From: a virus
Taxonomy: Duplodnaviria; Caudoviricetes
Strand: one strand, 5' to 3'
IMG/VR virus record: IMGVR_UViG_3300021979_000004
Coordinates: 64,001 to 128,000 of that record
DNA: 64,000 nucleotides
In this document: positions 333-12,159 of the stretch, piece after piece
Position numbering within the stretch: position 1 is the stretch's first letter
Layout of the letters: each line of letters starts with the position of its first letter
The notes under the pieces: generated by a model
What the model was told of the DNA's origin: nothing
Database searches by the model: none
Seen by the model: only the letters and a program-made list of their open reading frames with translations
Position numbers and translations under genes: made by a program

Positions 333-650
333 ATGATTAATAGTTGCCAATTAGAATCTGTCGTAGAACGTTTAAATACTGCGTTTGAAAAAACAGAAAA
401 AGACTACGATAAAATTCTTAAAGATATTAGCTTAAATGAGTCTACGTTAATGAACAAGATTGAATCTGATCTGGATGACCTTTCTAGGAAGTTTGAGGCC
501 GCTAAGAGAGGACTTCAGCTTGTAAACAAGCTTTCCATGGGGATGACAAAACTAAAGCATACACAGCGTGTGATGAGCAATCTAAGCACTCTTAGAAGCA
601 GTATCTTAAACCTAGAGAAGAAGGTAAAAGAAATGCTTTCTAAAGCTTAA
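333..650 (+). CDS. Coiled-coil hypothetical protein
   Basis: AAGGAG RBS upstream; heptad-rich helical sequence. Confidence 0.7.
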   Translation: MINSCQLESVVERLNTAFEKTEKDYDKILKDISLNESTLMNKIESDLDDLSRKFEAAKRGLQLVNKLSMGMTKLKHTQRVMSNLSTLRSSILNLEKKVKEMLSKA

Positions 651-1021
651 ACAATGTGAACAAACTTCTTTAGAAATTGACTTTCATTATCCCTCATGTA
701 TTCATACTTCGAGGGATTTGTTATTTTAATGCGGTTATTATCGTGAACACTTATCAATAGTTTACAACGTATAACAAACTCTTTATAAACTGTGTCGTCG
801 GTAGGAATATAACTGGTAACCGTAGTACTATCTTTACTGCTTTCAAAACAATCAACCTGTACTTTGAAGCCACATGGTATTTGCATTACATCCTTAAAGT
901 ATTCTCGAATGTATTCCTGTATCAAGTGTTTGTAATCAGAAATGTCAGACGAAGCAGATTCATGGATAGAAACAATAACCATACCAAAATTGTAATAGTA
1001 ATGACGAAATTCTTCACTCAC
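647..1021 (-). CDS. KLKxP-motif family hypothetical protein
   Basis: C-terminal HDNNRIKITNPSKY; overlaps neighbours in a tight operon. Confidence 0.75.
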   Translation of the reverse strand: MSEEFRHYYYNFGMVIVSIHESASSDISDYKHLIQEYIREYFKDVMQIPCGFKVQVDCFESSKDSTTVTSYIPTDDTVYKEFVIRCKLLISVHDNNRIKITNPSKYEYMRDNESQFLKKFVHIV

Positions 1022-1347
1022 AAAAAGTCTTCCTTACATACTAATTGAGGGTGTTCTTTTCTCAAGTTTACATAAAGGTTCATATGTTTTAATTTAAAAT
1101 ATTGTAGAGAACGTTTATTTAAAAACTGTACTCTTATAACATATGCATCATAATGTCTACTGTAAAAAACATTCCCATAACTACTTTTAATTGTTGGATA
1201 GGTTATTTTAGTGAAAGCGTACCCGTAAAGTATTTGGTTGATACTTTTCACTTTCTGATTCATGTCATCTTCAGAAACATGATCAGGCTTCTTTATCTTG
1301 TAGTAATACGTCAGTTCTTTCTTCATTACTCGACAAATACCTTCCAA
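1018..1347 (-). CDS. KLKxP-motif family hypothetical protein
   Basis: C-terminal SLQYFKLKHMNLY. Confidence 0.75.
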   Translation of the reverse strand: MEGICRVMKKELTYYYKIKKPDHVSEDDMNQKVKSINQILYGYAFTKITYPTIKSSYGNVFYSRHYDAYVIRVQFLNKRSLQYFKLKHMNLYVNLRKEHPQLVCKEDFL

Positions 1348-1822
1348 GATATTTATCGTTTTGAGTAATGATCATCTTGTTGATTCTATTGGAATTGTCA
1401 AAGTTAAGCTCAAACACAACGTAAGATTCTATGGCTAACAAGGTATACCGTTTATGTTCACTATCTGCAATCACACAGTCTATAGACCTTGAGTTATCCA
1501 TATAATGCTGAACCTTAGAATCTGGGTCTGTTTGGCATCTTCGGAAAGATACAAACCCTTCGAAATCAGACATATCTCTTTTTGAAAAATGCTCCCTAAC
1601 TTCTCTGTAAATTTCTTCAGACACATTTTTACGATTAGAGTTATCCGAGACTTCAGGAATAAGTAAAGTAATCATCATAGAAAATAATACTTCAATTGAC
1701 GTGTCGCCTGTACGTATAAAAGAAACTGGCTTAAACTTTATATACTTGTCATGTATAGACATTTCACTGCATAATCCACCAGACCGGAGCAAACATTTAT
1801 GGTATAAGTTAAAATGTTTCAT
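1283..1822 (-). CDS. KLKxP-motif family hypothetical protein (weak motif)
   Basis: C-terminal RINKMIITQNDKY; start uncertain. Confidence 0.65.
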   Translation of the reverse strand: MKHFNLYHKCLLRSGGLCSEMSIHDKYIKFKPVSFIRTGDTSIEVLFSMMITLLIPEVSDNSNRKNVSEEIYREVREHFSKRDMSDFEGFVSFRRCQTDPDSKVQHYMDNSRSIDCVIADSEHKRYTLLAIESYVVFELNFDNSNRINKMIITQNDKYLGRYLSSNEERTDVLLQDKEA

Positions 1823-1823
1823 A

Positions 1824-2153
1824 TCAGATAACTCCCAAAAATACTATAATGTAGTCCTGCTCACCGTCGTTTTTTATATCACGTTTGTATAGTTCTAACA
1901 ATTCTATCTTGTTGAGAAGCTTAAGCTTATTGAATATTGAAGATTTCTTGTCATTGAATGTTACGGTAGCTTCCATACTACTAAGAATATCTTTTCGATC
2001 AAACATATCAGTCGCGTCTTCGTTTACTTCAACCGTTTCGACTGAAGAATTGCTAGGTAAAAAAGATGTTATCAAGTAATCTTGTATAAATCCTGCGGTA
2101 GGAGGTGCATCACTCCTAGCCACAAAATACATTTTAAACTTAAGCGTATACAC
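1824..2153 (-). CDS. KLKxP-motif family hypothetical protein
   Basis: IFNKLKLLNKIEL near the C-terminus. Confidence 0.7.
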   Translation of the reverse strand: MYTLKFKMYFVARSDAPPTAGFIQDYLITSFLPSNSSVETVEVNEDATDMFDRKDILSSMEATVTFNDKKSSIFNKLKLLNKIELLELYKRDIKNDGEQDYIIVFLGVI

Positions 2154-2545
2154 TAATCGATCACCTTCATTTTTGAAAACATTTGATACTCATCTGGGTT
2201 GGACAATTTAAACTTATTTAACTCTTTCTGTGACTCGAATGCTAACGTGACTACTGCGTCAATCTGCATATAACAGTCAAATGTACTGATGTAGTAATCA
2301 TCAATGTAGTAGTCTTCTATTGACATCATGCGGTATATATCATGTTTAAAATTGTCTGACAAAAATCGATCAATATGACACTCTGCTACTTCGTATATAA
2401 GGTCAACAAAAATTTCTGACCTAGCGAACTCTTCCGTAATAACTTCGTGGAAGGGTTCTGTAGCATCTAACATTATCTTTGCAGAAAGCGTTACCTTTTT
2501 AGATTCGGATGTCATAGCACTTCTTAATCTTATCGGCCAAGTCAT
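2153..2545 (-). CDS. KLKxP-motif family hypothetical protein
   Basis: C-terminal ELNKFKLSNPDEY. Confidence 0.8.
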   Translation of the reverse strand: MTWPIRLRSAMTSESKKVTLSAKIMLDATEPFHEVITEEFARSEIFVDLIYEVAECHIDRFLSDNFKHDIYRMMSIEDYYIDDYYISTFDCYMQIDAVVTLAFESQKELNKFKLSNPDEYQMFSKMKVID

Positions 2546-2876
2546 AGTTAATGAGTTTAATACGATTCAAATCAGATGCGTTGGAAATTTCGAATCCAAT
2601 CTTAACTTCACACTTACTTATAACGTTTCGCAAAACTTGTGGATAGCGACTAATTACAATTTTATCAAACCGCACTTCCTTACGGATATGATTTTCCAAT
2701 AACTCGTAAGCTTCGTCCATACTTTCCGATGACATTAGGTTGACTAACGACTTCAAGAACGTATGATCTGTGATACTGACAGGTAGGATAGGAGCCTTCA
2801 TCACACTAAACTTCATTCGAATAATATCATCTTTTTCAAGCTTCATAACTATTCCTCTTTTACAACATTGTAACAT
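2499..2876 (-). CDS. KLKxP-motif family hypothetical protein
   Basis: C-terminal DLNRIKLINYDLA; probable start MKLEKDD. Confidence 0.75.
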   Translation of the reverse strand: MLQCCKRGIVMKLEKDDIIRMKFSVMKAPILPVSITDHTFLKSLVNLMSSESMDEAYELLENHIRKEVRFDKIVISRYPQVLRNVISKCEVKIGFEISNASDLNRIKLINYDLADKIKKCYDIRI

Positions 2877-2896
2877 ATCGACTTAAGTAATGCACC

Positions 2897-3379
2897 TCAA
2901 TTAGGAAGAACCATATCAATATCTATTGAGTACATAGTGGGTCCAGTTCCTTTTAAAATCTCTTGGTATATTTTTGCGTTTTTTAATTTAGCATAATTAT
3001 GATTAGAAAAGTCAGCGATATTGAATTTCACAGTGCTATATATAATATAATCATCTACCCATTCGTTAGGTCGTACCAGTGTATGTTCCAAAGGCTTACC
3101 TTTAAGACCGTTATCATCGATCCATTTCTGAGACTCTTTAGTAATCTCTTTCATGAAGTTTTTAATAGCAGTATCTTCGTCTACACCTTTCTCGCCTTTG
3201 AGATAATTATGCAATGCAAGACTGATATCAAATAAATCATCCTCACCATTAGAAGGATCAACAGTCTCGTCACCAATGGTGATTTTTTTTATAGAAAAGT
3301 TTAAGGTGATAAGAATACTTTCTTTTTGTTCAACTACATATACAATATTACCATTGTCTAGCTTTACAACTTCAGGCAT
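2897..3379 (-). CDS. KLKxP-motif family hypothetical protein
   Basis: HNYAKLKNAKIY near the C-terminus. Confidence 0.75.
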   Translation of the reverse strand: MPEVVKLDNGNIVYVVEQKESILITLNFSIKKITIGDETVDPSNGEDDLFDISLALHNYLKGEKGVDEDTAIKNFMKEITKESQKWIDDNGLKGKPLEHTLVRPNEWVDDYIIYSTVKFNIADFSNHNYAKLKNAKIYQEILKGTGPTMYSIDIDMVLPN

Positions 3380-3900
3380 TAGTACTTCCCCATTATATAC
3401 CTTATTATGGATTCATTAGATAAGTCTTCTGATAAAACAGTATGAAGTGTTTTATCTTTTATCTTCATTAGATGTGCTTGCTTTTTAGGAATTTTAATAC
3501 AAATACGGTCGTATATTAGAAAACCAACTTCGTAAGCAAATGTCTGATGTATCTTTACTACACCTTGTCTGACAACATTTGAAAATGACGCAGAATGTTT
3601 CTGTCTGAATACATATGGTGATAGAAAGTCAGACATAGCAGAATACTCTTCATCCATACCCGAAACGACTTTTCTCTTTACTGTCATTTTGTAATCGTAT
3701 CCTTTTAGGAAATCCCTGATCATATTGTTTATCTTTCTATCTCGGTCTAGGTCTTTTACGAAGCTTTCTTTTAAGGTATTAACATATTTTTCAACTTTTT
3801 CTTCATTTTCAAAGTTATGATAATCGACATTTATCATTTCGTGGTCTACCATTTTTAGTAGATACATATAGTAATCTTCATTTTTCGATTTTATAGACAT
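3379..3900 (-). CDS. KLKxP-motif family hypothetical protein
   Basis: QAHLMKIKDKTLH near the C-terminus; TAATG coupling. Confidence 0.75.
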   Translation of the reverse strand: MSIKSKNEDYYMYLLKMVDHEMINVDYHNFENEEKVEKYVNTLKESFVKDLDRDRKINNMIRDFLKGYDYKMTVKRKVVSGMDEEYSAMSDFLSPYVFRQKHSASFSNVVRQGVVKIHQTFAYEVGFLIYDRICIKIPKKQAHLMKIKDKTLHTVLSEDLSNESIIRYIMGKY

Positions 3901-4190
3901 TATGATTTTATTTCCACTATGTTATCTAATTGTGACATGAACTTGATTTTAAACTTATTAACATTATAAGTATCAGGGAATTGTAAAATTACCGTGCATG
4001 ATATTCGATAATCATGGCATTCAGTTGCTGTTTTATCAAAAAGCATTGGGTGGACTGTACACAATCCATCAAATTCATCCCCAACCCTATCTGAAATCAT
4101 TTGACGAATTTTAAAATCACTAAGGTCGTCTGGGTCGGGGATATGGTAAGTTCCTTTATGTTCCATAAGGAACAATCGTTCATCACTCAA
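3900..4190 (-). CDS. KLKxP-motif family hypothetical protein
   Basis: NVNKFKIKFMSQL near the C-terminus. Confidence 0.75.
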   Translation of the reverse strand: MSDERLFLMEHKGTYHIPDPDDLSDFKIRQMISDRVGDEFDGLCTVHPMLFDKTATECHDYRISCTVILQFPDTYNVNKFKIKFMSQLDNIVEIKS

Positions 4191-4482
4191 CTTCTCTCTC
4201 CCTTATTTCATCTTCAAGTAAATTATATAAGTCAGGCTCTTTCATTTTAAGTAAGTTGAGCTTATTCTTTTCGAAATACAAGGTGAACCAAATATCAAAA
4301 ATAGATTGCTTTCTATCTCTCATATCCATATACATTTTCTTTTCTATAATGCAGTATTTTGAGAACTGTTCATTGATGGTATCAGAAGCATTACTCATTT
4401 CTGTACCTAAATCTACCTGCTTTATTTTTGCAATGCGATAATAGTTTATCACTGTTACGCATGTATATTTTGTAATAGTCAT
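4183..4482 (-). CDS. KLKxP-motif family hypothetical protein
   Basis: KLNLLKMKEPDLY. Confidence 0.8.
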   Translation of the reverse strand: MTITKYTCVTVINYYRIAKIKQVDLGTEMSNASDTINEQFSKYCIIEKKMYMDMRDRKQSIFDIWFTLYFEKNKLNLLKMKEPDLYNLLEDEIREREVE

Positions 4483-4895
4483 AACTTTAACTTGTTTAAT
4501 AAATGTAACCTTTCGGAAAATAATTCATTATATGTTTTGGGGTTTTTCAACTTATATAAGTTCATTTCACGGTCAGATTCAAACGTAAAACGAAACTCTA
4601 TATACATTGCTTTATTAGGGAAAGAATACGCGCTGGTTAATGATTCAAGATATTCACTATTATATCCCATAGAAACAACTTCAAAGCTATCTGTGTCAGT
4701 CAATGACTTAATTAATGACTGACACACCCAATCCATACCTATATCTTCAGGTTTCATATCGTGCACATCGACACCATATAATTCCATGATACGGGCAGCA
4801 ATTACTTTTTCAGGAACTAGTGTGCCAAGTATTTTCGAGTTTATGTTCTCAAACATTTCACTTTCATTCAAGACCGGCTTTTTTACGCAACGCAT
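4479..4895 (-). CDS. KLKxP-motif family hypothetical protein
   Basis: EMNLYKLKNPKTY. Confidence 0.8.
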   Translation of the reverse strand: MRCVKKPVLNESEMFENINSKILGTLVPEKVIAARIMELYGVDVHDMKPEDIGMDWVCQSLIKSLTDTDSFEVVSMGYNSEYLESLTSAYSFPNKAMYIEFRFTFESDREMNLYKLKNPKTYNELFSERLHLLNKLKL

Positions 4896-5460
4896 TTACT
4901 GTTCCTCTGTCGTCAATACTATCTTTTGATTCTTGTATTATAACTTTATTAAACCATTCTTTGATTTTTTCTTCATTCTCATTATATTCGCCATTGAACA
5001 AACCGATATTTGTTAGTTCTGGATGCTTGAGCTTAAATTGGTTTTTATGTTTTCCTTCCTTGAGTCTTAGCTTATACGTATGTACTACCATCACATAGAC
5101 TGTGGTGGACTCTGCATAAAACTCATCGTCGTCATCGTCATCCCACGAATGAGATTCGACTTCACTGTGAACCGCTATGTTACGATCAACATCAATGTAT
5201 GATCCATATCTTTCTTCAATGATATCTGCAACTTTTTTTGAATAGTGGTTTACAAAACCACCATAAGCTTTTTCACAACGTTCACAAAAATCATCAATAA
5301 AGAATGCACGACATTCCTTTGTTCCATAGTGTATACGAAATCGCCTAAAACGCTTCAGTATCAGTTGTTCATTTTCATCATAACCACTTTCTTCGTCACG
5401 TTGATTAAGATACTCTATATACGGCGTTGGAGTTAACAACTCTACATTGATTGAATCCAC
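4864..5460 (-). CDS. KLKxP-motif family hypothetical protein
   Basis: HKNQFKLKHPEL; acidic poly-Asp tract. Confidence 0.8.
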   Translation of the reverse strand: MDSINVELLTPTPYIEYLNQRDEESGYDENEQLILKRFRRFRIHYGTKECRAFFIDDFCERCEKAYGGFVNHYSKKVADIIEERYGSYIDVDRNIAVHSEVESHSWDDDDDDEFYAESTTVYVMVVHTYKLRLKEGKHKNQFKLKHPELTNIGLFNGEYNENEEKIKEWFNKVIIQESKDSIDDRGTVNALRKKAGLE

Positions 5461-5930
5461 TCTTTATACTCCCAATAAGCCATTCTTTTATCAATACATT
5501 CTTGGTGAACAAACGCAGTAACAACTTCGAATGATTCGTCATACAAGTCATCACGGTAATGTTTTCCGTGTTTCAATTTTATACGATTGAGGGATTCCTT
5601 GTCAACGGTATTGGCCGTTATGATAGTGTTATAAACATAGGAATCATATATTCTTGTGGCAATCATATGCTCATCACCGTCGTCATCAACCTCTTGTTTT
5701 TTATCAAAATACTCTAAGAAGTCAGGATCATTAAAGAAAAGCTTAGACATAGCATGATTATTAGCTTTCATATAATCAGCAAACTGTCCATAACTAAGAT
5801 TTACCGACGACTTATAATCATCGACGTAATCTATATCAATACGTTTCAATGTGGTTTCAGTATTATCCTCATTAACTTCTTCAATGTAGTAGAGAAAGCA
5901 CATGTAATGCTCGTCGTCTACTTTAATCAT
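5442..5930 (-). CDS. KLKxP-motif family hypothetical protein
   Basis: SLNRIKLKHGKHY. Confidence 0.8.
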   Translation of the reverse strand: MIKVDDEHYMCFLYYIEEVNEDNTETTLKRIDIDYVDDYKSSVNLSYGQFADYMKANNHAMSKLFFNDPDFLEYFDKKQEVDDDGDEHMIATRIYDSYVYNTIITANTVDKESLNRIKLKHGKHYRDDLYDESFEVVTAFVHQECIDKRMAYWEYKEWIQSM

Positions 5931-6268
5931 AAGTATTCTCCTACTAAATCGTGAACCCCGTATCTTTCACTGTTGTACGGAATTTCATATGGTTTTTCAT
6001 TAGGCGCTGATCTAAACTTTTGATATAGGTCAGGATATTTTAATTTGATTTTTCTAAACAATACTTCATTAAAAATTTCAACATCCATACTAACGTAACA
6101 TAGAGGATACGCTTTTGTTCCTCGAACTTCAATATCTGTAATTAAAATAAAAGAACAGTTTAATAGTTCTTCTAAAAACCCATGGTACTCAATCAATAGT
6201 TGTGACTTAAGCCACTCTGGGTTTTTGTAACCCAACAATATAATTCTATGCTTTGTTTCAAATATCAT
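5927..6268 (-). CDS. KLKxP-motif family hypothetical protein
   Basis: LFRKIKLKYPDLY. Confidence 0.8.
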   Translation of the reverse strand: MIFETKHRIILLGYKNPEWLKSQLLIEYHGFLEELLNCSFILITDIEVRGTKAYPLCYVSMDVEIFNEVLFRKIKLKYPDLYQKFRSAPNEKPYEIPYNSERYGVHDLVGEYL

Positions 6269-6677
6269 CAGTATCTTCGACTCTATAATCCTTGTAATAA
6301 TTTGGGTCTTTCAGTTTTATCAAGTTAATATTTTTACTACCCTTTGCTACAACCGCTTTTATAAAATATGTTACTGTGATGGTGTTGGGAGAGTCAAGCC
6401 TTCTCATGCCAGTATGACCCCAATTAGCTTCTACGTTTATAAAATCCATTTGTGATTCTCTAGAATACGAAACCGGATCGCAAATAATTTCTATTGGTTT
6501 TAGTTCATATCTAGCCCACAATTCTATAGCAGCTTGCTTTTTAACTTTTTTAATAATAGACTCTGCCATTAGGCATTCTTTTTCACTACTATTAAGCAAC
6601 AGTTCTACATCACTACCAGTGAACATGTCAGGAGTAATGCAAAAAACTATTGTATGTGGTCTGTATAATATTTTCAT
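6258..6677 (-). CDS. KLKxP-motif family hypothetical protein
   Basis: NINLIKLKDPNYY. Confidence 0.8.
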   Translation of the reverse strand: MKILYRPHTIVFCITPDMFTGSDVELLLNSSEKECLMAESIIKKVKKQAAIELWARYELKPIEIICDPVSYSRESQMDFINVEANWGHTGMRRLDSPNTITVTYFIKAVVAKGSKNINLIKLKDPNYYKDYRVEDTDDI

Positions 6678-7108
6678 GTTTTATGTGAGCAATCTATCCC
6701 ATAGAAATACGAACCGTCACTGGTTGAAAAGTTTGCATATTTATGATTAATTAGCTTAGTCATAAAGTTATTTTGAATCTTTAATCTGTTAAAAGATTTG
6801 TTAGAAATCCACACTTTATAACACAACGTAAATGTACAGCATATCCCATCTGCTATAAAAAAGTATTCTGATCTAAAGTTTTCGGATAATTCAAAATCAT
6901 CGAAATCATCTACGAGCCAATCAGGTAAGCCACTATTATCAAAAACATAATTACGATTTTTGAATTCCCATTCTCTAATTATCTGGCTCATGTTTTTTAT
7001 AATTGAAACTTTCTTGAATTCCATAGGTATGAGAACATTCATTACTCGGAATTTTAGATACAAAAAGTTTTCATTGCTTGAAACTAAAGAAGGTTTGGTA
7101 GTAGTCAT
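6674..7108 (-). CDS. KLKxP-motif family hypothetical protein
   Basis: SFNRLKIQNNFM. Confidence 0.7.
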   Translation of the reverse strand: MTTTKPSLVSSNENFLYLKFRVMNVLIPMEFKKVSIIKNMSQIIREWEFKNRNYVFDNSGLPDWLVDDFDDFELSENFRSEYFFIADGICCTFTLCYKVWISNKSFNRLKIQNNFMTKLINHKYANFSTSDGSYFYGIDCSHKT

Positions 7109-7475
7109 AATCCTTGATCTTTAACAAACGTAATTCGTTTTCACTTAGAGAAAGCTTGATTATTCCAGTTACATTAAAGTATAGCATAGCCCTTTGATTC
7201 TGTCCGGTGTTTACTTCACTTGACGCTATACTAAAGCTATTTGTCGTCAACGGGCTTACACATTCTAGAATTGCGCCATACTCTATATCATTCTGATATG
7301 CATGACCGTGTTCAATTAAAAACTTTAAATCAACACGATGTTTATATGCTTCCTCATAGTAATGGTTTGGATCGCCACACTTAGCTTTGTAATGTTGTTC
7401 TTGTATCTCATTACGTATAAAATTCGTGCTAGCTTTATACATAAATGTTCGATAAAGATTTATTGTTTTATCCAT
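7071..7475 (-). CDS. KLKxP-motif family hypothetical protein (first gene of the array)
   Basis: ELRLLKIKDYDYY; the track start at 7541 overlaps the promoter, so MDKTINL (about 7475) is the more likely start. Confidence 0.7.
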   Translation of the reverse strand: MDKTINLYRTFMYKASTNFIRNEIQEQHYKAKCGDPNHYYEEAYKHRVDLKFLIEHGHAYQNDIEYGAILECVSPLTTNSFSIASSEVNTGQNQRAMLYFNVTGIIKLSLSENELRLLKIKDYDYYQTFFSFKQ

Positions 7476-7512
7476 ATTTTTATAATGTGAGTAATGGAAT
7501 TCCCAACCTAAG

Positions 7513-7541
7513 AATATACTCCTAGAGCCTTGTACTGTCAA
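7513..7541 (-). promoter_or_regulatory. sigma70-type early promoter for the 17-gene array
   Basis: Minus strand TTGACA-17 nt-TATATT. Confidence 0.75.
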
Positions 7542-7545
7542 GGTC

Positions 7546-7553
7546 TATAAATA
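7546..7553 (+). promoter_or_regulatory. T4-like late promoter
   Basis: TATAAATA 25 nt upstream of the AGGAG-ATG start of the terminase fragment. Confidence 0.75.
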
Positions 7554-7578
7554 ATGTTATAGATTTATAGGAGTGATC

Positions 7579-7908
7579 ATGAAATCTAATGAGAAGTATG
7601 AAATCTTAACGCCCACAGGATGGAAAGATTTTACAGGCGTTGAATATACTGGAATGAAACAAACATTGAAGATTACCTTAGATTCGGGTAAAGATATTGT
7701 ATGCACCCCAGAGCATAAACTGAAAGTTAATGACAAATATCTTACCGCAGAAAAGATTAAAGTTGGAGACACGATATCATCTGTGTCTTCGGATGTCCAT
7801 AAAGTAACTTCAATAACTGAACATGGAACATCTGCCTGCTATGATTTGGTAAATGTAGAAAATGATGATCACTCTTTTGTAATTCAAAATGATTTAATAT
7901 CTAGTAAC
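7579..7908 (+). mobile_element. Atypical split intein, C-fragment (IntC, 110 aa)
   Basis: Has block B CTPEH, block F CYDLVNV and block G ISSN/C but no block A; start EILTPTGWKDFTG resembles AceL-TerL IntC as I recall it. Confidence 0.8.
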
Positions 7909-9663
7909 TGCGATGAGCTTGCATTCGTTAACAAACGTATTGCTCTCGAATTCTGGACCTCTGTATTCCCCACTCTTTCCTGTGTAACTTACGATACTAT
8001 TATCCTGACTAAAGATGGTTTCATGAGAATTGGAGACGTTTTCAAAGATGTTGATTATAAACCGGGAGACTATTTCACCTTAGATAATTTCGAAGTATGG
8101 GGTAAGTATGGATTTGAAAAAGTATCACATGGTTATATCTCACCAAGTTCCGAAACTGTCATTGTTAGTCTGAAGAATGGACAGTCAGTTGAAGTAACAA
8201 AAGACCATCCATTGTTTGCTAACCGTAATGGTGGTGAAATGGTTCGTGCTGAAGATTTAAAAGTTGGTGATAAACTACGCGTAGATAAAGGCATGATGGT
8301 CGATTTCGGTGGGTTTACAGATTTCAAATGTTTAATTGAAACGGCACACGAAAATCCTGAAATAATACTTAATATGAGCTTCGAATGTTTCAAAAACCTT
8401 ATAGATTTCTTAGACTATAAAATTTATTGCGACAATCAACAAATGATGAATTGCTTTACGCAGGTTCTTAATAACTATGGGTATAATTATGAGTGTAAAG
8501 TTACTACGTTACACGTAAAAGAATGTGTTAGACAATATCGAACTGAATGGGTTGATATCGAATATATTTCCCAAGGCTGTACTAAAGTAACTTATGACTT
8601 TACGGTTCCTGCAACAAAAAGCTTTTTACAAAATGGTATTCTGGGTAGTAACACTGGCGGTTCATGTATTATCACTTCCACACCTACGGACGATGAAACT
8701 CTATTCGCTGACATATGGAAGAAAGCCAATGAAACTATGGATGAGTTCGGTAACACCACTGAGGTAGGTAGTAATGGTTTCAAAGCACTAAAAGTAAAGT
8801 GGGATGAACACCCTGATCGCGGTGAAGAATTCAAAGATTTAATGATTAAGCAGTTTGGTGAAGAGAAATTCAGACGTGAACATGAACTTGATTTCGTTGC
8901 AGAAGATGAAACCCTAATATCACCATTGTACTTGAGTGAAATGAAACACCAAGAACCTATAAAGAAAACAGGTCAGGTAAGATGGTATAAAAAGCTTGAT
9001 CGCAATAAAGTTTATTTTATAGGCTATGATCCAAGTCTAGGTACTGGTGGCGATAACTCTGCTATTCAAATATTTGAATTTCCAAGTATGGAACAAGTAG
9101 GTGAGTGGATGCATAATAAATCTGACGTTCCTACACAATTAAAAGTGTTGAAAAATATACTTAAAATGTTCGAGGATGCCGGTTTCGAAGAAGACAATGT
9201 ACGTTGGACTCTCGAAAATAATTCCATTGGTGAAGCACCATTGGTTCTTATTGAAGAATATGGTGAAGACGAATTCTTTGGATACTTCATGAGCGAACCA
9301 TACAATCCACGTCAACCTAGAGCGCGTTCTAGATTCAGAAAAGGGTTCAATACCAGCAACAGTAGTAAGCTTACTGCGTGTACTCGTTTCAAGCGTTGGG
9401 TTGAGAATGATAAGATGTTAATACATAGTAAGCCTATGATTAAAGAACTAAAAGGTTTCGTATCTCGTGGTAGAACATATAAAGCACGTGCTGGTGATAA
9501 CGATGACTTGGTTATGGCTACACTTCTATGTGTGAGGATGGCTATGATTACTATGCAGGAAGAAGATGAGTATATGGATGCGCTTGGTGTAGGCAATGAG
9601 ATAGATGACACTGAAAGTGATGACGATAGTGATTGGGATCAGCCATTGCCGGTTGTATTTTAA
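7579..9663 (+). CDS. terL: Large terminase C-terminal half (Walker B, coupling motif, RNase H-like nuclease) fused to an N-terminal split-intein C-fragment and containing a cis intein
   Basis: CDELAF Walker B, IITSTP motif C, FIGYDPSLG and DDLVMA nuclease motifs; no Walker A; in-frame TAA at 7552-7554; AGGAG RBS before ATG 7579. Confidence 0.9.
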   Translation: MKSNEKYEILTPTGWKDFTGVEYTGMKQTLKITLDSGKDIVCTPEHKLKVNDKYLTAEKIKVGDTISSVSSDVHKVTSITEHGTSACYDLVNVENDDHSFVIQNDLISSNCDELAFVNKRIALEFWTSVFPTLSCVTYDTIILTKDGFMRIGDVFKDVDYKPGDYFTLDNFEVWGKYGFEKVSHGYISPSSETVIVSLKNGQSVEVTKDHPLFANRNGGEMVRAEDLKVGDKLRVDKGMMVDFGGFTDFKCLIETAHENPEIILNMSFECFKNLIDFLDYKIYCDNQQMMNCFTQVLNNYGYNYECKVTTLHVKECVRQYRTEWVDIEYISQGCTKVTYDFTVPATKSFLQNGILGSNTGGSCIITSTPTDDETLFADIWKKANETMDEFGNTTEVGSNGFKALKVKWDEHPDRGEEFKDLMIKQFGEEKFRREHELDFVAEDETLISPLYLSEMKHQEPIKKTGQVRWYKKLDRNKVYFIGYDPSLGTGGDNSAIQIFEFPSMEQVGEWMHNKSDVPTQLKVLKNILKMFEDAGFEEDNVRWTLENNSIGEAPLVLIEEYGEDEFFGYFMSEPYNPRQPRARSRFRKGFNTSNSSKLTACTRFKRWVENDKMLIHSKPMIKELKGFVSRGRTYKARAGDNDDLVMATLLCVRMAMITMQEEDEYMDALGVGNEIDDTESDDDSDWDQPLPVVF
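7981..8652 (+). mobile_element. Cis intein (224 aa) with degenerate endonuclease remnant
   Basis: Block A CVTYDT, block B VTKDHP, block F TYDFTV, block G LGSN/T. Confidence 0.88.
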
Positions 9664-9734: not shown

Positions 9735-10379
9735 ATGGCTGTAAAAATTTTCAATGTTAGTTTAAAAGATGTTAAGCTTTCCAAAGGAAACCCACCTTTT
9801 TTATACAACATCCAAGAGTACAATGGTAGTCCATTAAACTACCAGTTTGAAGAGGTTGATTCTTCATTTAACGACCCTATAAATACCACAACTTATGCGG
9901 AAATGAGTAGCTTGGCAAACCAAAACTATACCTATCGTCTTTCTAATACAGGCGATGAAAGTGGTGGGTTTTATGATATAAGCAATGCTTCTGAAATTGA
10001 TCTATCATATGACTGGAAAAGGTTTGACTATGCATCAAACTATCAAACAACACTTATTCTCGGAAACGTTTTTAGTATGGATTGGCTTCGTGCTGGATCA
10101 TACGGGACAGAGCCGGGGAATCTGGATATTTACACATTGGCAGGAACTGACGCAAACTATCCAATATTAAGTAACGTAACTCTATACACTTGGAGTACTT
10201 ACAGATTTGTTATCAACTCAGAAGGCTTAAAGTTCTATATAAATGATACACTGTATCGTGATCTACCTTCCTACACGTTAGATGAGGTGCGCAATAGAGG
10301 GATTAACGTAACGTCATTAACTGTTTATACAAGCTCTAATAAAGTTAATATTAGAAACTTGAGTCTAGTTATAAAATAA
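9735..10379 (+). CDS. Late protein with shared N-terminal peptide and lectin/ConA-like C-terminal region
   Basis: AATAAATA at 9693-9700; MAVKIFNV N-terminus like 55527; WSTYRFVINSEGLKFYIND strand pattern. Confidence 0.6.
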   Translation: MAVKIFNVSLKDVKLSKGNPPFLYNIQEYNGSPLNYQFEEVDSSFNDPINTTTYAEMSSLANQNYTYRLSNTGDESGGFYDISNASEIDLSYDWKRFDYASNYQTTLILGNVFSMDWLRAGSYGTEPGNLDIYTLAGTDANYPILSNVTLYTWSTYRFVINSEGLKFYINDTLYRDLPSYTLDEVRNRGINVTSLTVYTSSNKVNIRNLSLVIK

Positions 10380-10849: not shown

Positions 10850-11482
10850 TTATAGTTTTTGTTCCTTTACTTTCTTATATTTATCATCCTCAAAACTTCC
10901 TTCATATGTTAATTTAATGGGCTTGCGGTAGTAGTAATAGTTTGGATGTTTCAACTTATGCAGTCGTTCTAATCTATCTGCTTCTACTTCCATTGAAATA
11001 AAATGTGCGTCAACTGCACTATTCAAGAAATCAAAATCATCTATGAAAATCTTAACATCAAATGCATAGTTCATTGCCAAATAAAGTTCGCCATCTTTCA
11101 TATATTTTACAGAGCTTCCACCACCCGAGCCAAGATTCACACCAGCAACTGAGTGTGCGCCTCGGTTTCCAAACATACCACTACATGACGATATACGATG
11201 GTTATTGATAATAGTGAACTCTATTCTTCCCTGAAGACCCTTGTAATATAATGGCTTTGAATTATCTCTCATGAAGTTCTCAACACCATCGATAGGGCAG
11301 GAATGGGAGTTGCTAACTTCTTTCTTATATTCGACACTGTACTGTAAGCTGATAATATCTGCGTCAAAGTTTTCTTTTATAGCCTCTGGGAGATACTTGA
11401 AAATATCACCCACTTCTTTTGCATCCTCACACAACTTTATTAGAACAAACCTATCAGGCTTCTTACTTACTTTTGGAAACAT
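10850..11482 (-). CDS. Hypothetical protein with KLKxP motif
   Basis: AGGAGG RBS before MFPKVSKK; RLHKLKHPNYY near the C-terminus. Confidence 0.75.
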   Translation of the reverse strand: MFPKVSKKPDRFVLIKLCEDAKEVGDIFKYLPEAIKENFDADIISLQYSVEYKKEVSNSHSCPIDGVENFMRDNSKPLYYKGLQGRIEFTIINNHRISSCSGMFGNRGAHSVAGVNLGSGGGSSVKYMKDGELYLAMNYAFDVKIFIDDFDFLNSAVDAHFISMEVEADRLERLHKLKHPNYYYYRKPIKLTYEGSFEDDKYKKVKEQKL

Positions 11483-11565
11483 GAAATACCTCCTGAAATA
11501 AGAAAGTATAACATCGGCGTTGGTACGAATCAATAAATACTGTAAACAATAATGGAGTTGAAAGT

Positions 11566-12159
11566 ATGAGTTTAAAAAAATATGTAGAACTTTTAGAATC
11601 TGCATCCCAAAGTGGTAAAAATCAGGAAGACACGATACAGGAAGAATTGTTTCTGGTTTTTCAACAAGAAGTTAAAAAACACTTTGGTGATAAAATAGAA
11701 TCATCTGGTTATGAATTTACGTATAATGGCACTGATAAGAATGGTGGTCTTGTTGATGTTTATTATCTTAATGACGAAAAGAATGATAAAATTTCTATTA
11801 GTTTGAATACCGAAGTTTTATCTATTGAAGATAAAGACTACGATGATGAAGAAGCAACTAACATGGAGAAGAAGAGTAATGTTGTTATTAGTCTTCGATT
11901 TGAAGGAACTCTATCTGTATTCTTTGAAACTGAAGTGGGCGATGTAGAAATAACATCTGTACCGGTCAACGAAGAATATGGATTGGTAGTCAAGAAATAC
12001 AATGATCATCTTGGAGCGTATTGGGATAGTCTACTGGATACAAAGAGTGAACAGGACATTGTAGACGATATGAACGCCTACCATGTTGCCTTAGACACCT
12101 TCTTTAAAGAAGCACAGTATGACATACCAAATTATATAAAGATGTACTACGGCTCTTAA
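11566..12159 (+). CDS. Acidic late hypothetical protein
   Basis: AATAAATA at 11532-11539, GGAG RBS; MSLKKYVELLES start. Confidence 0.7.
   Translation: MSLKKYVELLESASQSGKNQEDTIQEELFLVFQQEVKKHFGDKIESSGYEFTYNGTDKNGGLVDVYYLNDEKNDKISISLNTEVLSIEDKDYDDEEATNMEKKSNVVISLRFEGTLSVFFETEVGDVEITSVPVNEEYGLVVKKYNDHLGAYWDSLLDTKSEQDIVDDMNAYHVALDTFFKEAQYDIPNYIKMYYGS

Follow-up and report, generated by a model that had tools for sequence, protein, structure and literature searches.

A large terminase gene that opens with an intein C-half: probable third piece of a three-piece, trans-spliced packaging enzyme in an SCTP-2-like phage

The window analysed here is a stretch of 64,000 nucleotides, comprising bases 64,001-128,000 of the 217,982-bp IMG/VR virus contig IMGVR_UViG_3300021979_000004. 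Its plus strand carries an open reading frame (ORF; positions 7579-9663, 694 aa) that opens with a C-terminal intein half (IntC) of 110 aa and continues as a large terminase subunit (TerL) from Walker B (CDE) onward. How can a gene that starts inside an intein and behind the Walker A motif contribute to a DNA-packaging enzyme? We consider it very probable that this ORF is the third piece of a three-piece TerL joined by protein trans-splicing and, as part of the same judgement, that the source is a jumbo phage similar to Salicola phage SCTP-2 with a genome of about 440-460 kb. Splicing itself is inferred from homology with inteins that splice in vitro (PMC11766414).

The terminase gene of the window

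The first-pass annotation had described the ORF as starting in mid-intein, with blocks B, F and G and without block A, and this description held. An in-frame stop codon (TAA, 7552-7554, plus strand), read directly from the sequence as annotated, closes the frame upstream of the ATG at 7579, which is preceded at a distance of 5 nt by a ribosome-binding site (AGGAG, 7569-7573, plus strand). The IntC, assigned to a split intein termed B (IntC-B; 7579-7908, plus strand), contains the HINT blocks N2, B, N4, F and G. Block B reads C42-T43-P-E-H46 (CTPEH), block F begins at residue 86 (ACYDLVNV), and the terminus S-S-N110 is followed directly by C111-D-E-L-A-F; block A is absent from the 110 residues. 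The best PDB sequence match was CatC (6DSL_B; residues 5-112, E 9.8e-8), followed by gp41-1 (E 3e-4), in agreement with the proposed affiliation to split inteins of the AceL/GOS type.

C111 is the +1 residue of intein B and opens the Walker B segment, as annotated. It starts an extein segment of 24 aa (7909-7980, plus strand) that includes D112-E113 of Walker B, extends from CDELAF to PTLS and is collinear with the segment SLVYLDEMAF...SPTLS of the TerL of Pseudomonas phage PA5oct. These 24 residues separate IntC-B from a second intein, the contiguous (cis) intein C of 224 aa (7981-8652, plus strand; residues 135-358, from C135 to G-S-N358, with Thr at +1), which is located just before ATPase motif III (TGGSCIITSTP). 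Intein C matched Intein_splicing (E 2.8e-10) and PT-HINT (E 1.6e-6), and a Pfam scan of it detected no intact homing-endonuclease domain. Its excision in silico restored the collinearity with PA5oct TerL. The remaining C-extein of 336 aa (8653-9663, plus strand, up to the stop codon) covers the last part of the ATPase domain together with an RNaseH-like nuclease domain (Terminase_6C, E 1.8e-5; phrog_36964, E 1.3e-67). The C-extein of the window gene shares 65% identity with SCTP-2 gp224 and 46% with PA5oct TerL.

Among the features of T4-type TerL proteins, the ORF thus contains Walker B, motif III and the nuclease. Walker A was missing from the ORF and from the other terminase-like matches of the window, as the annotation had stated; its threonine starts a middle piece encoded elsewhere on the contig, and the preceding residues (...RQLGK) were found only in relatives. 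The annotation was also correct in its view of the surroundings: 17 minus-strand ORFs of at least 90 aa occupy positions 647-7541 directly upstream, and no endonuclease gene adjoining the terminase gene was found among them. To its picture of this gene, the contiguous intein of 224 aa and a third terminase gene have to be added.

The other pieces and the reconstructed enzyme

A search of the whole contig with phrog_36964 yielded a second terminase match at 138,941-139,267 (E 9e-28). It lies in a plus-strand gene (contig 138,653-139,546; L002:1213-2106) outside the window, 65 kb downstream of the window gene. This middle piece consists of the IntC of another split intein (IntC-A, ending ...VSHN|T), an extein of 87 aa (TACASLYLLWYAMF...GRGLSISLLY) that runs from the Walker A threonine, and the N-terminal half (IntN) of intein B. 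IntN-B has 95 aa and starts with CLDAGT, its Cys1 being C211 of the middle piece. The best sequence matches of IntC-A were two atypically split inteins, VidaL (E 5.6e-6) and CatC (E 1.9e-5). In the predicted structure of the middle piece VidaL was the best fit for IntC-A (Z 8.9, 93 residues), and the extein fitted the ATPase domain of T4 gp17 (Z 7.2). A PDB sequence search with the IntN-B core alone gave no match; a match of the whole IntN-B to ComR (E 0.012) was judged spurious. The first-pass annotation had proposed trans-splicing with a distant locus that encodes a TerL N-half with Walker A and a short IntN. The distant locus was found, and its layout recurs in SCTP-2 and in independent assemblies; the predicted direct partner of the window IntC is, by its sequence, this middle fragment and not a TerL-N piece with Walker A.

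The Walker A part, piece 1, is present in relatives. In SCTP-2 it is gp534, in which 87 aa ending ...ARQLGK precede an IntN of 43 aa that starts with CVDYET. Relatives encode an N-extein of about 87 aa, ending ...RQLGK, followed by an IntN of 35-47 aa, and metagenomes hold stand-alone piece-1 genes of 122-134 aa that end with RQ.GK|C and a short IntN. One of the latter is located on the JGI contig Ga0209300_1000076 (L034) and is followed by a T5orf172 (GIY-YIG-like) gene. This T5orf172 gene (L034:4362-5669; 23.1 bits, above the cut-off) overlaps the end of piece 1.

The ORF for a TerL N-terminus with Walker A that the annotation expected elsewhere in the genome was, in contrast to these relatives, absent from the 218-kb contig. 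With the piece 1 of SCTP-2, a segment that shares 56% identity with PA5oct TerL and has matches in more than 2,000 phage records, the best tblastn hit on the contig had E 0.17. The contig contained no RQxGK motif or terminase N-terminus ORF, a search of it with PF03237 gave no match, and regular expressions for Walker A and for IntN matched only IntN-B and the IntN of a clamp-loader gene. Synteny with the piece-1 neighbourhoods of SCTP-2, L030, L032 and L034 revealed no piece-1 locus on the contig. Protein scans of IMG/VR did not recover piece 1 (the sole match, with 29% identity, covered the N-extein only), and a degenerate DNA pattern for MLARQLGKC had no match there. The related IMG/VR contigs L004-L006, which are short fragments, are without piece 1; in the more distant contigs L007 and L012 the TerL N-part lies within open frames of 523 and 530 aa. 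The contig holds less than half of the genome, since a related scaffold measures 457,965 bp and the genome of SCTP-2 440,001 bp, and the completeness of 73% estimated by CheckV is too generous. The scaffold has the same gene order as the contig, with amino-acid identities of up to 99% in flanking genes.

SCTP-2 (MF360958; host in the record, Salicola sp. PV4) is the nearest isolated phage, and its genome holds all three pieces: piece 1 (gp534, 130 aa) at about 429 kb on the minus strand, the middle piece (297 aa) at about 257 kb on the plus strand and piece 3 (gp224, L016:2870-4951) at about 216 kb on the minus strand. Virtual splicing, with the inteins removed in silico, gave a protein of 87 + 87 + 24 + 333 = 531 aa. 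Aligned with the uninterrupted TerL of PA5oct, likewise of 531 aa, the spliced exteins were identical at 259 of 522 positions and had no gaps at the splice junctions; the exteins of pieces 2 and 3 of the window phage align to PA5oct TerL equally well. The three inteins are inserted at GK|T within Walker A, at LLY|CDE (Walker B) and at TLS|TGG, just before motif III. Since the complete SCTP-2 genome gave a single Terminase_6C match and no TerL_ATPase match, SCTP-2 appears to have no terminase besides these three pieces. A PhoH-like ATPase of SCTP-2 (535 aa; L020:1204-2811, about 61.5-63.2 kb) also appears to contain an intein and therefore matches the intein part of phrog_36964.

The residues expected to act in splicing are conserved. 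In 20 of 20 aligned piece-3 homologues the block B motif T/S-x-x-H, a terminal Asn or Gln and the +1 Cys were retained, and Cys1 of IntN-B was invariant in 30 and 40 aligned middle pieces. Between the middle piece and a relative with 86% identity, the nonsynonymous divergence (dN) was 0.03-0.04 in the extein and in IntN-B, with a synonymous divergence (dS) of 1.5 or saturated; for the two regions of this comparison with saturated dS, dN is given and no dN/dS ratio. These values point to strong purifying selection on extein and intein halves. As a separate observation, the intein-B IntC of SCTP-2 gp224 and of several metagenomic relatives (P0143-P0146) ends with Gln (VSQ|C, VLQ|C or VVQ|C), and the window copy with SSN|C.

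Databases contained 5,392 proteins related to the middle piece with E values up to 1e-5, and the architecture was tallied on the best 120 of them. At least 96 of these open with a C-terminal intein half whose last residues read SHN|T or SHN|S. A long IntN as in the window phage was present in 40 (297-314 aa in total length; one truncated entry of 209 aa), a short, AceL/GOS-like IntN of 31-52 aa in at least 40 (whole piece about 240-290 aa), and 16 have the same IntC at the start and no IntN at Walker B. With so many of the best 120 relatives starting with its IntC, split intein A in the P-loop is, on this tally, widespread among uncultured large phages.

The window gene had also been credited with a late promoter of its own. 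A T4-type late-promoter-like motif, TATAAATA, is located at 7546-7553 (plus strand), 25 nt before the ATG, and recurs in front of the middle piece, at a distance of 26 nt from its start. The number of motifs does not exceed chance (11 copies in the window, 11.4 expected), but their position on the contig is non-random: 19 of the 34 contig copies (56%) precede, at a distance of 5-45 nt, the ATG of an ORF with a length of 60 aa or more, compared with a mean of 11.6% for permutations of the same composition, among which the two next-best controls were overlapping variants of the motif. TATAAATA is therefore consistent with a putative T4-type late promoter.

Under the proposed mechanism, all three pieces would be made late in infection: piece 1, the N-extein up to RQLGK with IntN-A; piece 2, IntC-A, extein and IntN-B; and piece 3, the product of the window gene. 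IntN-B, contributing Cys1, and IntC-B, contributing T43/H46, Asn110 and Cys+1, would associate into one HINT fold. Class-1 trans-splicing would then join LLY to CDE and thereby rebuild the Walker B strand. Intein A would likewise trans-splice at GK|T in the P-loop, and the cis intein C would excise before motif III. The mature product would be a TerL of about 531 aa.

Several observations weigh against this mechanism. The penultimate residue before the terminal Asn is Ser, not His, in both IntC-B and the cis intein, and the intein-B pair has redundant middle regions that complicate the picture of HINT assembly. Intein A is a paralogue of intein B (the IntC halves are 32% identical over 63 aa, the IntN cores 40% over 30 aa), so that mis-pairing between them is conceivable. 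Piece 1, finally, was missing from the contig, so that the set is complete in SCTP-2 but only presumably so in this genome. The two penultimate serines, together with the catalytically dead HINT segment carried by the partner IntN-B, would fit an assembly without ligation, in which the intein halves only dock, no peptide bond is formed and the ATPase stays permanently split. Split proteins that work without ligation do exist. Such a non-covalent assembly is nevertheless improbable: all homologues retain C1, the block B T-x-x-H motif, the terminal Asn/Gln and the +1 Cys/Thr, some 200 unremoved residues at GK|T and LLY|CDE would be expected to disrupt the nucleotide site, and AceL-TerL, GOS-TerL and Cat, close homologues of IntC-B, splice in vitro (PMC11766414).

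Given a contig that covers less than half of the genome and does not include piece 1, the genes might alternatively be decaying remnants of a terminase broken by mobile elements, with an intact terminase in the unsequenced half responsible for packaging. We regard this as somewhat less probable still. Exteins and intein halves are under strong purifying selection, the 694-aa ORF is intact in several assemblies, the window gene and the middle piece each have a promoter-like motif as well as a ribosome-binding site, and the complete genome of SCTP-2 has these pieces only, with no other match to a TerL nuclease or ATPase. Least probable by far is an assembly error or frameshift in a gene that is really contiguous with its N-terminal part, in favour of which we can name nothing but the metagenomic origin of the contig. 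It is opposed by the in-frame stop codon, the ribosome-binding site and the divergent gene cluster upstream, and by identical gene boundaries in three other assemblies and in the SCTP-2 isolate genome. The 694-aa gene recurs together with the neighbouring minus-strand genes in these three independent assemblies, one of which is the 457,965-bp scaffold. Recurring boundaries, conserved catalytic residues and low dN together make frameshift, assembly error and pseudogene very unlikely, and a three-piece TerL joined by trans-splicing remains the preferred explanation.

Overlapping halves of intein B

The redundancy within intein B resides in the partner half. The first 30 or so of the 95 residues of IntN-B correspond to the short IntNs found in relatives; about 60 residues at the end (241-305 of the middle piece) form a conserved tail which, among the aligned middle pieces, was found only in the SCTP-2-like clade. 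This tail is homologous to residues 25-79 of the window IntC-B, the N2-B-N4 segment (hhalign probability 95%, E 3.8e-8, 54 columns). Detection of the homology needed profile comparison, the match in pairwise BLASTP being weak (E 0.006). Profile comparison with the other inteins gave poorer matches (IntC-A, 20%, 29 columns; cis intein, 66%, 43 columns), and since the match to IntC-B exceeds both, the tail seems to derive from intein B itself. Modelled alone, the tail reached a predicted local distance difference test score (pLDDT) above 90 and superposed on residues 43-100 of gp41-1 and residues 73-138 of Pho PolII (both Z 8.7, 1.7 A, 56 residues); among the matches listed for this model, all 50 were HINT domains.

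The tail lacks the block B Thr; the His is absent in the window phage (VPESY) and not conserved in relatives. Its dN (0.041, with dS saturated) is below that of IntC-A (0.155). The sequences thus describe an intein whose two halves overlap, with the middle of the fold encoded in both, the catalytic residues in the IntC copy only, and the dead copy maintained.

The order IntC-extein-IntN of the middle piece corresponds to the topology of split-intein circular ligation of peptides and proteins (SICLOPPS), which cyclises the extein. Tentatively, and with considerable doubt, the tail may be seen as regulating trans-splicing from within the molecule: as a natural cage or chaperone, it would hold the IntN core in a folded state in which the core is not available for reaction. 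It would block the cis reaction of IntN-B with the paralogous IntC-A at the other end of the middle piece, until the cognate IntC-B displaced it by strand exchange; prevention of that cis reaction may also be its role irrespective of caging. Alternatively, the tail may have been left behind when the split site shifted between the canonical and the atypical position, and may since have gained a structural role. If the cage were real, engineered caged split inteins would have a natural counterpart in it, and intein B would document a transitional state between canonical and atypical splitting.

Genomic setting and known split genes

Several of the small minus-strand ORFs within 647-7541, and one at 10850-11605, share a short motif near the C-terminus, [RK]-h-K-L-K-[HYD]-P-x-x-Y (for example LKHPNYY, KLKYPDLY and KLKDPNYY), and may constitute a paralogous gene family. 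A Pfam scan of one tested member gave no match, and neither did scans of the terminase-adjoining ORFs 7071-7541 and 9735-10379. A gene of 92 aa that ends ...AGAIKQVASVPVQKAGKA.RGRPLAVYEKA occurs twice on the contig (56,988-57,263, plus strand; 217,299-217,541, minus strand), and a copy with 94.6% identity to the former adjoins the piece-1 locus on Ga0209300_1000076.

Terminases with split inteins have been described before. In the fractured terminase gene of Dassa et al. 2009 (PMC2677866) the C-intein part has 122 residues with every motif except N1, and an endonuclease gene is placed between the two adjacent halves. AceL-TerL (IntN 25, IntC 104 residues; Cys1/Cys+1), GOS-TerL (IntN 37, IntC 115; Ser1/Cys+1) and their consensus Cat (IntN 30, IntC 104) are the characterised representatives (PMC11766414). 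The window IntC resembles all of these in its TerL host and in its length (110 aa, compared with 104-122 aa) with all blocks but A. With AceL-TerL it further shares Cys1 (C211, middle piece) and Cys+1 (C111, window ORF), and the IntNs of 31-52 aa in the shorter middle-piece relatives are comparable to those of AceL and GOS (25-37 aa). Its sequence, its length and its set of blocks therefore lead us to assign the window IntC to the atypically split TerL inteins. In contrast to the AceL/GOS systems, the partner IntN is not short and consists, with 95 aa, of a short-IntN-like core and the HINT-like tail of 60 aa; the two halves are encoded 65 kb from each other, with their order inverted and without an intervening endonuclease gene; and the partner on the N-side is itself a fragment in need of a second split intein, with a third, cis intein following 24 residues later.

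With the fractured genes of Dassa et al. 2009 the terminase pieces described here have the type of element and the phage setting in common, but they are predicted to be independent late genes at distant loci that have lost adjacency and the intervening endonuclease. Putative endonuclease genes flank terminase pieces in relatives (L034, SCTP-2) and have no counterpart beside the window gene. In SCTP-2 a gene with a weak HNH/GmrSD_C-like match (gp225, L016:1761-2783; E 0.004, below the cut-off) is located directly upstream of piece 3.

The layout that the terminase does not have is found in the clamp loader (RFC/gp44-like) of the same contig, on the minus strand at contig positions 209,972-212,936 (window coordinates 145,972-148,936, outside the window). 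There, an N-piece of 81 aa ending GPPGTGK|CLDGSEY... carries an IntN of 31 aa, a C-piece of 393 aa starts with an IntC of 131 aa ending HHN|T, and the locus includes a free-standing gene of 502 aa in which a Vsr-like motif (...EYYGSFWH...) was read by eye. With the clamp loader fractured in this manner, fractured and dispersed layouts coexist in one phage.

Dispersed halves as such are familiar from cyanobacterial DnaE and Nanoarchaeum equitans PolB, which are encoded at distant loci. The terminase shares with them the principle of an essential enzyme that originates from separate, distant genes and would be joined by protein trans-splicing. DnaE and PolB are two-piece, canonically split (IntN about 100 aa, IntC about 35 aa) and cellular; the terminase is viral and comprises three pieces with two paralogous, atypically split inteins plus a cis intein. 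Both cellular systems are listed as split inteins (PMC11766414). Literature searches, of incomplete coverage, found no description of a natural three-piece or dispersed terminase or of inteins in the SCTP-2 terminase; what they returned was confined to the fractured terminase of Dassa et al. 2009, with its two adjacent pieces, and to the biochemical work that followed it up.

The first-pass annotation had further envisaged a new protein-ligation tool. For the intein-B pair this idea is weak because IntN-B is long, and the pair is less attractive for this purpose than its relatives with a short IntN. The overlapping tail, on the other hand, offers a natural experiment on the movement of split sites and the avoidance of mis-pairing, and is relevant to the design of split inteins that are orthogonal or conditional. 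In this clade the terminase, the sole DNA-packaging motor, appears to be encoded only as three fragments, here and in the isolated relative. Production of virions should accordingly require two trans-splicing reactions in a set order plus one cis-splicing reaction, all of them within the ATPase active site. With SCTP-2, which is culturable, the sequence of assembly steps, their timing and the orthogonality of the two inteins may be followed.

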